Source: Escherichia coli
GTDB taxonomy: Bacteria; Pseudomonadota; Gammaproteobacteria; Enterobacterales; Enterobacteriaceae
Length of the DNA: 64,000 nt
Strand: one strand, 5' to 3'
Assembly (NCBI RefSeq): GCF_016026235.1
Contig: NZ_CP065613.1
Of the stretch, positions 5,153 to 63,885 are shown piece after piece; the first letter of the stretch is position 1, and every line of letters starts with the position of its first letter. The translations under genes were made by a program, and so were the position numbers. The notes beneath the pieces were generated by a model. The model made no database searches. It was given only the letters and a program-made list of their open reading frames with translations, and had not been told where the DNA came from.

Positions 5153-5977
5153 TTATAGCGGAAAACGCGAAATCAGCAGCTCTAAGCGCTGGCGAATATC
5201 GCTATCCAGCGCCACCGGTGCATCATACGACTGGCGGTTTTCCATATCATCCGCCACCATGTCGTCGTGTTTATCCCCCATCAGGCCATTAATGGCGGCG
5301 AGGAAACGGGAAATCTGTAACGCCTCTTTATTTTCAGGATCAAGCGATCTTAAGGTGTCGTAATAAGAAACCTGCTGGCTGATGATTTTTCGCACATCAT
5401 GAAATTCCCTGCCGGTTAGTCGCGGTTTGGCAATTATCTCTTTCAGGGCATGCATTTGCTTTTGCCGATAGGCAATAAAACCGCTTACGCTTTCTAACTG
5501 GCTATGGCGTAATGAATAGTTCACCAACGACCAGACCGGAGAGCTTAAATAAATTCGTAACAGGTTGCCGTAATACGACACAATATTTTTCTTACCGTTA
5601 CGAAATCCGTCCTGAAAACGTCCCAGAAAAACGGTCGTTTTGCCGAATAAAAATCTGGCCTGATGCTTTTTTAAATACAGCCGTTGTGCAAAACGTAGAT
5701 GCTTGTAGCGCGCTCGCATGTATTTAAACTGTTTACGCTCGTCTGTCGTCAGCTCATCGCCTTTGGCTTGTTTGCGAATTAAACGAAGTAATTCCTGACG
5801 ATCAACGCCATTGAGCCAGAATTGCAGGCATAACGCGTAATTATCATGGATGATTTCGGTGGTACAACATAGTGCGATAGTCGGCGGCAAACTGACCTGG
5901 GCATCAACAACATCATCTTCCTCAATCGCAACAAATAGATGCTCGCTCGCCTCAAGCGGGAAATATTTTCTCATCAT
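5153..5977 (-). CDS. hypothetical protein (possible counterpart of the K-12 yghO pseudogene)
   Basis: 274-aa ORF, in operon orientation with flanking genes; no motif recognised. Confidence 0.45.
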   Translation of the reverse strand: MMRKYFPLEASEHLFVAIEEDDVVDAQVSLPPTIALCCTTEIIHDNYALCLQFWLNGVDRQELLRLIRKQAKGDELTTDERKQFKYMRARYKHLRFAQRLYLKKHQARFLFGKTTVFLGRFQDGFRNGKKNIVSYYGNLLRIYLSSPVWSLVNYSLRHSQLESVSGFIAYRQKQMHALKEIIAKPRLTGREFHDVRKIISQQVSYYDTLRSLDPENKEALQISRFLAAINGLMGDKHDDMVADDMENRQSYDAPVALDSDIRQRLELLISRFPL

Positions 5978-14549: not shown

Positions 14550-14635
14550 TCCAGGCCGGATAAGGCGTTCACGCCGCATCCGGCAATCGAGCACAATGCC
14601 TGATGCGACGCTGCCGCGTCTTATCAGACCTACGA
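14550..14635. repeat. REP (repetitive extragenic palindromic) elements
   Basis: gccggataaggcgttcacgccgcatccggc and gcctgatgcgacgctgccgcgtcttatcag palindromic units. Confidence 0.6.
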
Positions 14636-24594: not shown

Positions 24595-25479
24595 ATGTCT
24601 CATTTAAAAGACCCGACCACGCAGTATTACACTGGTGAATATCCCAAACAGAAACAACCGACGCCAGGCATCCAGGCGAAGATGACACCGGTACCGGATT
24701 GCGGCGAGAAAACCTATGTTGGTAGCGGTCGCCTGAAAGATCGTAAAGCACTGGTGACAGGGGGCGATTCCGGAATAGGTCGCGCTGCCGCCATCGCTTA
24801 CGCGCGTGAAGGGGCTGACGTGGCGATCAGTTATCTTCCCGTGGAAGAAGAAGACGCTCAGGATGTGAAAAAGATCATTGAAGAATGCGGTCGCAAAGCC
24901 GTTCTGCTGCCAGGCGATTTAAGCGATGAGAAGTTTGCCCGTTCGTTGGTTCACGAAGCGCATAAGGCGTTAGGCGGGCTGGATATTATGGCGCTGGTCG
25001 CCGGGAAACAGGTTGCCATTCCTGATATTGCAGACCTCACCAGCGAACAGTTTCAAAAGACCTTTGCCATTAACGTTTTCGCGCTGTTCTGGCTAACCCA
25101 GGAAGCGATCCCCCTGCTACCGAAAGGTGCAAGTATCATCACCACTTCGTCAATCCAGGCATACCAGCCAAGTCCGCATTTACTGGACTATGCGGCTACG
25201 AAGGCGGCGATTCTGAACTACAGCCGTGGCCTGGCAAAACAGGTCGCGGAGAAAGGTATTCGGGTGAATATTGTCGCGCCAGGCCCTATCTGGACGGCAC
25301 TACAAATTTCCGGCGGACAAACGCAGGATAAGATCCCGCAGTTTGGTCAGAAAACGCCGATGAAGCGTGCGGGGCAACCGGCGGAACTGGCCCCAGTATA
25401 TGTTTATCTGGCAAGTCAGGAGTCGAGCTACGTCACCGCAGAAGTGCACGGTGTGTGCGGCGGCGAGCATTTAGGTTAA
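24595..25479 (+). CDS. yghA: short-chain dehydrogenase/reductase
   Basis: 294 aa; GGDSGIGRA Rossmann motif. Confidence 0.85.
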
Positions 25480-25483
25480 AAAA

Positions 25484-25510
25484 TGCCCGGTTGTGAAAAG
25501 CAACCGGGCA
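25484..25510 (+). terminator. stem-loop downstream of yghA
   Basis: tgcccggttg / caaccgggca inverted repeat. Confidence 0.5.
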
Positions 25511-25529
25511 TCATTGTGAATTCACTCTT

Positions 25530-25750
25530 ACCTGATGTGGCGAAAACGCCTTATCCGCCTACAAACGCATGAAGATTCAACATGTTGCAATAGATTTTGT
25601 AGGCCTGATAAGCGTAGCGCATCAGGCATTGAGCACCTAATGCCGGATGCGGCGTGAACGCCTTATCCGGCCTACAAACGCACGAAGATTCAACATGTTG
25701 CAATAGATTTTGTAGGCCTGATGAGCGTAACGCATCAGGCAATTCTACTT
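25530..25750. repeat. BIME-type cluster: tandemly duplicated unit of about 105 bp containing REP palindromes
   Basis: two near-identical copies of gccttatccg...caaacgca.gaagattcaacatgttgcaatagattttgtaggcctgat.agcgta.cgcatcaggca. Confidence 0.7.
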
Positions 25751-26175
25751 TACTTCGCTTTGGCGGTTTCTTCGCCGACCAGACCTATCTTCAGGTAACC
25801 CGCCTGATGCAGCGTATCCATTACCTTCATCAACGTCTCGTAATCGACGGTTTTGTCCGCTCGGAAGAAGATGGTGGTGTCTTTCTTACCTTCGGTTAAC
25901 GCATTCAACGCCGTAATCATTGTTTCATCGGTGACCGGATCGTTACCGATAAACATCGAGTTGTCTGCCTTCACCGACAGATAAACCGGTTTTTCCGGGC
26001 GCGGCTGCGGCGTGCTGGTAGAAGCAGGTAAGTTCACCTTCACATCTACCGTCGCTAACGGTGCCGCCACCATAAAGATAATCAGCAGAACCAACATCAC
26101 GTCGATAAACGGCGTCACGTTGATATCATGCATTTCGCCGTTATCATCGAGGTTTTCGTTAAGATGCATTGCCAT
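25750..26175 (-). CDS. exbD: TonB-system biopolymer transport protein
   Basis: 141 aa. Confidence 0.9.
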   Translation of the reverse strand: MAMHLNENLDDNGEMHDINVTPFIDVMLVLLIIFMVAAPLATVDVKVNLPASTSTPQPRPEKPVYLSVKADNSMFIGNDPVTDETMITALNALTEGKKDTTIFFRADKTVDYETLMKVMDTLHQAGYLKIGLVGEETAKAK

Positions 26176-26181
26176 CGGACA

Positions 26182-26916
26182 TTATCCTGCACGTAATTTT
26201 TGTGCGACACGAACCGGATGCGCAGCGGCGCTGGCTTCCAGATCCAGGTCACGGCTTTGCAGCAACAATACCTGCGCTGCGACATCACCCAGCATCGCTT
26301 TAAAGCCGCCAATCTGACGCGCGAATACGTTATAGATAACGACCGCCGGAATCGCTGCCACCAGACCGATTGCCGTTGCTAACAGAGCTTCTGCGATACC
26401 CGGCGCAACGACTGCCAGGTTAGTGGTCTGCGTTTGCGCGATACCAATAAAGCTGTTCATGATGCCCCAGACCGTACCAAACAGACCAACGAACGGCGAA
26501 ATCGCGCCGATGGTTGCCAGATAGCCGTTACCGCGGCCCATTTGACGACCTACTGCGGCGACCCGACGCTCCAGACGGAAGCTGGTACGTTCTTTAATAC
26601 CTTCGTTATCGTCGCTGCCTTCTGACAGTTCCAGCTCATTCTGCGCTTCATTGAGCAAATGCAGGCTTAAGCTTTTGCTACCAAAATCAGCGGCGATATC
26701 GTTGGCCTGGTTTAAGGAACGCGCTTCAGCCAGCAGTTGCTGCTCGCGCTTAAGGCGACGCTTCTGATTGAAGAACTCTACGCTCTTACTGAAGAAGATT
26801 GCCCAGGTGACTACGGAGGCCAAAATAAGCCCAATCATCACGCACTTAACGACAATATCGGCGTGCTGATACATACCCCAGACGGAAAGGTCCGTCTGCA
26901 TTAAATTATTACCCAC
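26182..26916 (-). CDS. exbB: TonB-system biopolymer transport protein
   Basis: 244 aa. Confidence 0.9.
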   Translation of the reverse strand: MGNNLMQTDLSVWGMYQHADIVVKCVMIGLILASVVTWAIFFSKSVEFFNQKRRLKREQQLLAEARSLNQANDIAADFGSKSLSLHLLNEAQNELELSEGSDDNEGIKERTSFRLERRVAAVGRQMGRGNGYLATIGAISPFVGLFGTVWGIMNSFIGIAQTQTTNLAVVAPGIAEALLATAIGLVAAIPAVVIYNVFARQIGGFKAMLGDVAAQVLLLQSRDLDLEASAAAHPVRVAQKLRAG

Positions 26917-31450: not shown

Positions 31451-31554
31451 GCTTTTTACGCCTCAAACTTTCGTTTTCGGGCATTTCGTCCAGACTTAAG
31501 TTCACAACACCTCACCGGAGCCTGCTCCGGTGAGTTCATATAAAGGAGGAACGT

Positions 31555-58319: not shown

Positions 58320-58560
58320 TGGTTACCAGAATCAGGGCAGTCTTAGGAGTGGCGGCATATAGCCAAAATAACGTGAGCGGGTCCATGCCCGACAGAATCG
58401 TTACTCTCTCCCATCCGGACTCTAACCGTCGGCCCCGGAATTACACCGGATCTGCTGTCCTTTGAGTTCGCACCCAAAGCGCTCGCGGGCTTTCAACTGA
58501 GTTGATTTACCGCCGGTGGGGAATTTCGCCCCGCCCTGAGAATAAGCGGATTCACTATAA
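58320..58560 (-). promoter_or_regulatory. FMN riboswitch (RFN element) in the ribB leader
   Basis: long structured 5' leader; minus-strand sequence contains ggggccgacggttagagtccggatgggagag, matching conserved RFN core segments; boundaries approximate. Confidence 0.6.
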
Positions 58561-61974: not shown

Positions 61975-62114
61975 GCTGAAACGGGAAAGCCCCTCCCGAA
62001 GAAGGGGCCTTGTATAAGGAAAGGGTTATGATGAAGCTCGTCATCATACTGATTGTGTTGTTACTCGTAAGTTTCGCAGCTTATTAACAGCCAATCAGAG
62101 GGGGGAGAAATCCT
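61975..62114 (-). ncRNA. sibD: SibD antitoxin sRNA body (antisense to ibsD), separated from its promoter by the IS insertion
   Basis: sequence homologous to the intact second copy; boundaries inferred. Confidence 0.4.
62028..62087 (+). CDS. ibsD: type I toxin peptide Ibs (19 aa, MMKLVIILIVLLLVSFAAY)
   Basis: direct translation; hydrophobic 19-mer. Confidence 0.8.
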   Translation: MMKLVIILIVLLLVSFAAY

Positions 62115-63407
62115 CTGAGGGATCCCCAGAAAATTTAGTAAACCATTATCATATTGGTATACCGTTGCTGTAGAACTTTCAGCCCTGCGTCAAATGACAG
62201 TGTGTTTAGTATGAGTGGAGAATGTCGAATCACATTCTCCGCCAGTTTTAATAACGAGATGACTCGCCTGTGCTTCACTGTATTTGCCTGATATTTATGA
62301 TGTATCCCTTTGTTTTCCAGGCTGAAACCGCTTAACCACATAATGATACTGGCTAATGTTGCGATCAGACTCAATACCGTGACCCGCCCGGATGAATGAC
62401 TGGCACCAAACCGTAGTCCAAATCCCCAGCGAGGATTTTTTTCATCCCTGAAATTTTGCTCAATTTGCATTCTACGGCTGTATAATTTCATTACCTGTTT
62501 TGGCGAGAACTCAGTACTGTTTGTGAAAATAAACCATGGTGATTTCCCGGCAGTACGAGCTTTAGCCGTCACCGATGGTCTGGTTGCTCTTTCCTTCGAG
62601 CGTTTAAATCTACGACCTTTAGGCTTACTTTTATAAAGATAAAAATGCCCTTCATGTTGTGCATTTTTATCTCGACCCAGCAGGCCTTCACCTAAATAAA
62701 TTGCTGTCGTTGATGCTTTTGTGCCTGAGTCCGACACCTTTTCCCAGCCATTACCAACATTGTAATAATGATTGCCCAGTACCCGGCAAATATAGGTCCA
62801 GCCACGGGAGCGGAGCTGTTGGAACCATCGCCCCTGAAAACCGGCATCTGTAATAACAATGACATCAGTCCCGGGGGAAAAGCACTCAGCAAGCGATTCC
62901 AGAAAACGCTCATGTACATCTGCATTCGCTGTCTGTGATGATGGAACGACACAACTCATCAACGGTAAAGAACGCCCGTCACATGCCAGGCTTGCCCGCA
63001 AAAGCTGAAAACGAGAGGCATGATAAGCACTCCAGTCAATGAGTATCACAACACGAGACATTCCCGCGTAATCTTTTGGGTAATTCGCTGAAAAATGGTG
63101 GAAACCTCATTTTGCAAATGTCGATTCCCCAACAGTCGATCCACCCGCTTTATTTTGTTTTTAACTGATGCCGTACCGGTTAAATGACGCCCGATACTGG
63201 TAAGTGTGAGGGAAGCGCCATTTATTACAGCATTAGTTGCGTCAATCAGTGATTTTTGACGGTAAAGATGCAAAGGGGCCAGTATATTGTTAAGGAAATT
63301 TTGGCATAATGAACGTGCAGGCATAGTGGTGATCTCCTTGAAATTGTTAGCACAATCAATTAGATCACATCTCACTATGCCTGTCTTGTTTTCTGGGGAT
63401 TCCTCAG
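62115..63407 (-). mobile_element. IS4-family, IS10-like insertion sequence (1293 bp)
   Basis: 19-bp imperfect terminal inverted repeats ctgagggatccccagaaaa / ctgaggaatccccagaaaa; flanked by direct repeats gagaaatcct (9-10 bp target-site duplication) that are single-copy in the second ibs/sib repeat. Confidence 0.8.
62135..63324 (-). CDS. IS10-like DDE transposase, encoded in two overlapping frames (possible frameshift near 63046-63061)
   Basis: N-terminal part (MPARSLCQ...NRHLQNE) and C-terminal part (VILIDWS...LYSRRMQIEQNFRDEK) both align by eye to IS10 transposase; reading frame changes between ITRE and SRVVIL. Confidence 0.7.
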
Positions 63408-63654: not shown

Positions 63655-63805
63655 CTGAAACGGGAAAGCCCCTCCCGAGGAAGGGGCCTTATAGAAGGAA
63701 AGGGTTATGATGAAGCTCGTCATCATACTGGTTGTGTTGTTACTGTTAAGTTTCCCGACTTACTAACAACTGATCAGAGGGGGGAGAAATCCTCCCTTAC
63801 CCTTG
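63655..63805 (-). ncRNA. sibE: SibE antitoxin sRNA (antisense to ibsE)
   Basis: predicted promoter at 63813-63841 and a hairpin plus U-rich tract near 63655-63690 on the minus strand; boundaries approximate. Confidence 0.45.
63707..63766 (+). CDS. ibsE: type I toxin peptide Ibs (19 aa, MMKLVIILVVLLLLSFPTY)
   Basis: direct translation. Confidence 0.8.
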   Translation: MMKLVIILVVLLLLSFPTY

Positions 63806-63885
63806 TTCCTTTACTCTAGGTTGAAAAAACAACAGCGTCAATAGGCCTGCCATGTACGAAGCGAGATCTGTGAACCGCTTTCCGG

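Follow-up and report, generated by a model that had tools for sequence, protein, structure and literature searches.

Two BIME-1-type modules in tandem at the REP222 locus between yghA and exbD of Escherichia coli

Introduction

Binding of IHF at BIME-1 elements, the preference of gyrase for BIME-2 elements, variation among isolates and targeting by insertion sequences are long-established traits of REPs and BIMEs (PMC3333891; PMC6379681; PMC1187871). Stabilisation of mRNA 3' ends by such elements has likewise been described for decades. A BIME-1 combines a y and a z1 REP with a long linker, L, which often carries an IHF site (Ton-Hoang 2012, PMC3333891). BIME-1 elements are said to ‘occur as single copies’, chimeric multi-copy forms being set apart as atypical BIMEs (PMC3333891), and it is generally known that isolates differ in whether they carry them (PMC1187871). 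Many of the REPs give rise to transcripts, and REP elements are the source of more than 30 RNAs of the nucleoid (Qian 2015, PMC4550694). REPs also contain natural targets of IS621, an insertion sequence with an IS110-family bridge-RNA recombinase; the natural target is ATCAGGCCTAC, with a CT core (Durrant et al., PMC11208160).

For the locus considered here, REP222a-d and REPv222e have been listed both for exbBD and for yghA as ‘5 REPs’ (Murashko et al. 2023, PMC10100675). In the same study the RNAs of exbB, exbD and yghA all rose upon fluoride-induced ATP depletion, and Northern blots showed that NaF treatment, like inactivation of RNase E, stabilised the full-length yghA RNA of ~1,000 nt and a decay intermediate of ~300 nt, from which the authors concluded that REPs shield the 3' end from exonucleases (PMC10100675). 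Here we analyse the repeat array found between yghA and exbD in a 64,000-nt stretch of E. coli DNA (contig NZ_CP065613.1 of assembly GCF_016026235.1), the whole of which is referred to as the window. The feature is real and is already catalogued in K-12 as REP222. The present analysis provides a locus-specific census in which empty, one-copy, two-copy and IS621-disrupted states all occur in one species, a clear example of tandem BIME-1-type modules, and natural evidence that both predicted IS621 bridge-recombinase targets of the array are in use. We regard the census and the IS621 observations as useful detail and not as discovery; otherwise the locus matters little.

Results and Discussion

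Structure of the repeat array

The array is a composite repeat in two direct copies that spans 25531-25741 of the window, between two convergent genes (Table 1). A repeat search of the window recovered a 72-nt direct repeat (25557-25628 and 25670-25741, 96% identity, spacing 113 nt) and an adjoining 27-nt repeat (25531-25557 and 25643-25669, 85% identity, spacing 112 nt). In a global alignment the two units agree in 91 of 100 columns; 7 of the others are mismatches and 2 are gaps, one of them an internal 1-nt deletion in copy 1. The copies are thus 91% identical overall, and 96% identical across the spacer and second palindrome. A homologous part of 98-100 nt together with a 13-nt linker makes up a period of 112-113 bp. 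Within each copy a Y-type REP comes first, then an L spacer of 36 nt that includes an IHF-like core, and last a Z1-type REP in the opposite orientation; the repeat search listed two inverted repeats as well. The original prediction of a duplicated BIME with REP palindromes and a shared spacer in the convergent intergenic region between yghA and exbD, placed at 25530-25750, is borne out by the repeat search and the alignment, with the exception of the unit length, given there as about 105 bp, which falls short of the actual period. Its description as a tandem duplication holds for the presence of two copies but not for a bare head-to-tail arrangement, as the modules are joined by a tail-to-tail linker of BIME type.

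Table 1. Features of the yghA-exbD region, with positions in the window.
Feature	Position	Strand	Remarks
yghA CDS, NADP-dependent aldehyde reductase	24595-25479	+	ORF; RefSeq name from 99.8%-identical matches
Hairpin common to both convergent genes, 12-bp stem	25483-25511		Directly after yghA stop; ViennaRNA folds
Left flank motif, 15 nt (GTGAATTCACTCTTA)	25516-25530		Part of inserted block, missing from empty-site alleles; alignment of filled and empty alleles
Copy 1 Y-type REP, decayed (Y')	25531-25562	+	Differs from copy 2 by 4 substitutions and a 1-nt deletion
Copy 1 L spacer, 36 nt	25563-25598		IHF-like core ATTCAACATGTTG at 25575-25587
Copy 1 Z1-type REP, inverted relative to Y	25599-25628	-	Exact IS621 target ATCAGGCCTAC on minus strand, 25599-25609
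Junction REP pair (Y, linker, Z1 in exbD sense)	25602-25672	-	Rfam naRNA4 match above gathering score
Tail-to-tail linker, 13 nt (TTGAGCACCTAAT), joining the modules	25629-25641		Resembles linker at 14586-14596 and naRNA4 linker
Copy 2 Y-type REP	25642-25675	+	34/34 match to Y consensus GCCGGATGCGGCGTGAACGCCTTATCCGGCCTAC
Copy 2 L spacer, 36 nt	25676-25711		IHF-like core at 25688-25700
Copy 2 Z1-type REP	25712-25741	-	Second exact IS621 target, 25712-25722; 8 nt from exbD stop codon
Right flank of inserted block, 7 nt (ATTCTAC)	25742-25748		Filled versus empty alleles
exbD CDS	25750-26175	-	Stop codon 25750-25752
exbB CDS, behind exbD	26182-26916	-	

Chance can be excluded because the REP patterns had no expected matches in shuffled sequence (0 for the 34-nt Y REP consensus and 0 for the 30-nt Z1 sequence in 100 shuffles of the window). 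Tandem Repeats Finder reported no rows for the array in runs that included three parameter sets, probably because it amounts to only 1.87 copies, which is a limit of the tool and no evidence against the repeat. The individual palindromes have the properties of REPs, being imperfect palindromes of ~30-35 nt with a GTAG/CTAC head that form stable stem-loops, apart from the decayed Y' of copy 1. Folding with ViennaRNA gave -13 to -21 kcal/mol for three of the four REPs (~-21 for the Y of copy 2) and only ~-9 kcal/mol for Y'. They are extragenic, lying between two stop codons, and highly repeated, a query spanning the array having a median of 33 places per genome among the matches listed and 40 or more in 4,410 records. 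Open reading frames of 40 codons (25535-25657, plus strand) and 63 codons (25551-25742, minus strand) run through the REPs. As candidate genes for products of 40 and 63 amino acids they were rejected as REP-derived artefacts, with no RefSeq CDS in any genome examined.

The core ATTCAACATGTTG matches WATCAANNNNTTR at 8 of 9 specified positions in both L spacers, although such matches occur ~0.9 times per kb of the window. The sequence, read together with the BIME-1 literature, points to both spacers as probable IHF sites. The array might also insulate the convergent units topologically, through a pair of IHF bends, through its cruciform-prone palindromes or through a gyrase site, which would make it primarily a piece of DNA architecture. 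The IHF-like cores are 113 bp apart, an IHF site is frequent in BIME-1 L linkers (PMC3333891), and the 3' ends of convergent units are a typical RIB position, to go by the title of Boccard and Prentki (1993). Set against this, each core has one mismatch and is of a quality met about once per kb in the window, the core has been lost in the SCPM-O-B-8794 lineage described below, enrichment of gyrase cleavage is reported for BIME-2, at its y REPs, but not for BIME-1, and the positions of gyrase sites and IHF sites are negatively correlated (PMC6379681). We therefore regard a mainly architectural role as possible but rather unlikely.

Classification and known relatives

In composition both modules are of BIME-1 type, with Y and inverted Z1 around a long L, and they share with described BIME-1 (RIB, RIP) elements the order of these parts, an L with an IHF-like core and presence/absence polymorphism among strains. 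The array departs from these elements, which are single-copy as described, in having two modules in tandem at a period of 112-113 bp and in the BIME-2-type linker between them. Nor is it a BIME-2, as it has the short-looped Z1 in place of Z2, and the head-to-head linker is the 36-nt L and not S; the tail-to-tail linker is its only BIME-2-like part. Because the modules stand in tandem while BIME-1 is described as single-copy, the cluster is, by its sequence, best filed as an atypical BIME built from two BIME-1 (RIB/RIP) modules, which is a mild oddity only.

The closest relative is REP222 of E. coli K-12 itself (EcoCyc/GenBank REP annotation), which occupies the same yghA/exbD locus and is collinear with the window, the interval from hairpin to exbD context being 237 nt. 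Three differences fall inside the array, and the variation is at strain level, with a G/T SNP in the copy-2 Y loop, an A/G SNP in the copy-2 Z1 loop and one A fewer in the A-run. The K-12 RefSeq record has no repeat features at the locus, and the name REP222 is taken from PMC10100675. The array accounts for four REPs, and the fifth one annotated in K-12 is perhaps the terminator hairpin that lies between the array and yghA.

With BIME-2 arrays and the naRNA4 of REP325 (RF02564) the locus shares a tandem layout, copy-number polymorphism and the tail-to-tail Y-linker-Z unit, whereas BIME-2 and REP325, the latter at another locus, have Z2 and a short S head-to-head linker; the array has neither and carries an L-type linker instead. 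The Rfam model of naRNA4 is built on the Y-l-Z2 unit of REP325, which binds HU and condenses the nucleoid. Aligned across the junction pair (25602-25672, minus strand), the model clears the gathering score of 59.5 with 68.1 bits; on the plus strand it scores 50.2 bits, which is under the threshold. As the minus strand is the one transcribed with exbBD and REP-derived nucleoid RNAs have precedent (Qian 2015), one could imagine an naRNA4-like RNA, released from the exbBD 3' UTR, that binds HU and associates with the nucleoid. However, the second hairpin is Z1 instead of Z2 and the aligned loop contains deletions; moreover, the model is generic for tail-to-tail REP pairs, because it finds a better match at 14554-14630 in the same window. 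Such an RNA is therefore very improbable here, and the naRNA4 match, as far as sequence can tell, shows REP-pair architecture and gives no indication of function.

The better match belongs to a second REP pair at 14551-14634, consisting of an inverted Y, the linker ATCGAGCACAA and a Z-type REP, which scores 84.8 bits. The 13-nt linker TTGAGCACCTAAT of the array resembles ATCGAGCACAA and, judged by this resemblance, is not random filler. Elsewhere in the window four other Rfam matches pass the gathering score (63692-63841, 62013-62152 and 58399-58547 on the minus strand and 31453-31516 on the plus strand), representing two SIB RNA antitoxin genes, an FMN riboswitch and the ES173 sRNA.

Transcript ends and the proposed role in RNA

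In the exbD sense the hairpin common to both genes is followed by UUUUUU, the corresponding A-run preceding it on the plus strand, which together with the predicted fold marks the hairpin as a canonical intrinsic terminator of exbBD. In the yghA sense it is followed by CAUUGUGAAUUC, without a U-tract. A scan for promoter and terminator consensus sequences found nothing in 25300-25900, and the shared hairpin was established by folding instead. Because the array is located between the exbD stop codon and this hairpin, it probably belongs to both 3' UTRs. It probably forms most of a 3' UTR of ~270 nt for exbBD, and it would be reached by probable read-through from yghA, since the hairpin lacks a U-tract in that sense. 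The ~1,000-nt yghA RNA (PMC10100675) fits termination at the hairpin better than read-through across four REPs, suggesting that perhaps only a fraction of yghA transcripts carry the array. In empty-site alleles an A-run on one side of the hairpin and a T-run on the other make it a symmetric bidirectional terminator; in filled alleles the BIME flank replaces the T-run on the yghA side, and the yghA terminator thereby loses its U-tract.

We consider it very probable that the cluster is REP222, a pair of BIME-1-type modules that acts as a stabiliser of RNA 3' ends and whose copy number changes through recombination, this being the best explanation of the observations as a whole. The array would be transcribed as the ~270-nt exbBD 3' UTR and by read-through from yghA. 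Its REP stem-loops would then block 3'-to-5' exonucleases, so that upstream mRNA is stabilised and REP-containing decay intermediates are left. Homologous recombination or slippage between the 113-bp repeats changes the copy number, to judge by the hybrid one-copy allele described below, and the Z1 REPs serve as natural landing sites for IS621. The main cellular effect is most likely this classical REP effect, which others have demonstrated for yghA and which we infer for exbBD. The original prediction had named the units as candidate transcript-stabilising elements, and published experiments at REP222 give this experimental support (PMC10100675).

The position of the array next to exbD also raises the idea of a translational brake, in which the Z1 REP just past the stop codon would cause ribosome stalling at termination and tmRNA action and thereby lower the amount of ExbD. 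With the REP ending at 25741 and the stop codon at 25750-25752, the 8 nt between them fall within the 15 nt from a stop codon at which REPs are reported to act in this way (as summarised from Liang et al. 2015). In empty alleles, however, an even stronger hairpin, that of the terminator, follows the stop codon by ~6 nt, and the BIME may consequently change nothing in this respect. We hold such a brake to be unlikely.

Allele states among complete E. coli genomes

Copy number was compared in a census of 5,426 complete E. coli genomes, in 5,423-5,425 of which the locus was found. An intact filled allele with one or two copies is present in 3,589 genomes, and the site is empty in 1,574 (29%), as determined with a 54-nt junction probe that is unable to seed on filled alleles; by difference, about 260 genomes are otherwise interrupted. 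One-copy alleles number at least 60, the best 60 matches of the one-copy query all being single-piece matches of 509 bp, and fewer than ~150 (1-3% of genomes), an upper bound taken from the rank of the first two-copy match in spread listings, as coverage could not separate one copy from two. Two-copy alleles account for about 64-65%, again by difference. All 63 of the two-copy rows sampled span 621 or 622 bp, and alleles with three or more copies must therefore be rare. Empty alleles lack the element and retain the terminator hairpin. By background, two copies are found in K-12 and O157:H7, and the site is empty in UTI89, ST131 and clone D i14.

The one-copy allele read in detail, that of strain B27, is a hybrid whose Y' corresponds to copy 1 and whose L and Z1 are the copy-2 variants, just as recombination or slippage between the repeats would produce. 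The earlier suggestions that the units are candidate recombination elements and vary between strains are upheld by this allele and by the occurrence of 0, 1 or 2 copies together with IS621-disrupted forms. K-12, O157:H7, O145, KO11FL, 47-1826 and strain 41 match the window in the 237-nt structure and in the differences specific to each copy, and the sequences indicate that the duplication is old relative to the lineages of the seven two-copy genomes compared. Ongoing concerted evolution of the copies was rejected, since the differences that distinguish them are identical in the window and the six other two-copy genomes. The Y' of copy 1 is degraded in every E. coli two-copy allele examined.

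At the right-hand edge of the insertion, the last exbD codon (25749-25753 region) reads AAG in all filled alleles and AAA in all empty alleles and in Salmonella, among the sequences examined. The SNP falls right on the junction of the indel and tracks occupancy without exception in these sequences, a linkage that suggests one indel event spread by recombination.

The zero-, one- and two-copy alleles could in principle act as a natural post-transcriptional dial on YghA and on ExbBD, the TonB energiser. Such a dial would work through mRNA 3'-end stability, the REP near the exbD stop codon and the missing U-tract of the yghA terminator where the site is filled, and if it existed, lineages would differ in iron-uptake capacity or in colicin and phage sensitivity owing to the repeat; we think this improbable. 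The locus could serve as a convenient natural allelic series for REP effects on exbBD and yghA expression. Any function must be dispensable, as 29% of complete E. coli genomes are without the element.

Other Escherichia and Salmonella

Other members of Escherichia were surveyed by a degenerate-pattern scan of species-representative genomes. In E. albertii the site, whose flanks are homologous, holds a single decayed module, a finding that speaks against a functional reading. One copy is also present in the divergent strain E69 and in RMDEC465 (from the E. coli genome collection). At ~5% divergence, SCPM-O-B-8794 shows two modules joined by the same linker, with a copy 1 similar to the single E. 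albertii module; its L spacers, of 25 and 21 nt, are mutually dissimilar and both lack the IHF-like core, a loss that argues against strong selection on an IHF site. Escherichia sp. MOD1-EC7003 has an empty site identical to that of E. coli of the UTI89 and ST131 type, and Salmonella has one unrelated hairpin at the site. Taken together, these sequences show that occupancy of the site predates E. coli, yet both filled and empty alleles are met with across the lineages. A gpr-like gene ends immediately upstream of the hairpin in E. albertii, where no more than the final few dozen bases of yghA are left; yqhA and most of yghA appear to have been deleted there, with the decayed BIME-1 and exbD retained.

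A pattern of this kind might also be expected of selfish or neutral DNA, with a BIME-1 module acquired at the 3' end of exbD, later doubled and kept by drift and hitch-hiking, its effect on RNA being incidental. This reading accommodates the presence/absence polymorphism (1,574 of 5,426 genomes empty), which BIME-1 elements are known to show generally among isolates (PMC1187871), as well as the decayed or truncated modules of E. albertii and the SCPM-O-B-8794 lineage and the degraded copy 1 Y' of all E. coli two-copy alleles examined. Less easily accommodated are the REP-dependent stabilisation of RNA measured at the locus (PMC10100675) and the two-copy structure with its paralog-specific differences, unchanged in six of six other two-copy genomes, including K-12 and O157:H7. 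We give neutral persistence something close to an even chance. It is compatible with the RNA-stabiliser explanation preferred above and differs from it only in whether the RNA effect has been selected.

IS621 insertions

IS621 is present in all interrupted alleles examined, with junctions of the form ATCAGGC-CT-[1,279-bp IS]-CT-AC. The exact 11-mer ATCAGGCCTAC occurs only twice in the 64-kb window, both times on the minus strand and once per Z1 REP. As with the natural IS621 targets described in REPs, LT-CT-IS-CT-RT junctions are found at both of these sites in other genomes; the window itself has no IS621 at the yghA/exbD locus. Four of the five insertions examined are in copy 1 and share one flank haplotype, and they probably descend from a single ancestral event. 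The fifth, in strain Bongo, is independent, as it lies in copy 2 on a different haplotype. A reading of the array as a recurrent IS621 hotspot was accordingly toned down, four of five insertions being on one flank haplotype and only that of Bongo being clearly independent.

By rank bounds, IS621 occupies the locus in about 145-264 of the 5,426 genomes (3-5%); only such bounds are given because junction counts are confounded by IS621 in other BIME-1 elements and by an IS-free matching haplotype. In XH989 the sequence to the left of the exbD-adjacent IS621 is not yghA but a different BIME-1 downstream of rnpB/garK, which implies an inversion or translocation by recombination between two IS621 copies in different BIME-1 elements. 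The flanks of the OkiPb01681 insertion show the loss of one 113-bp unit.
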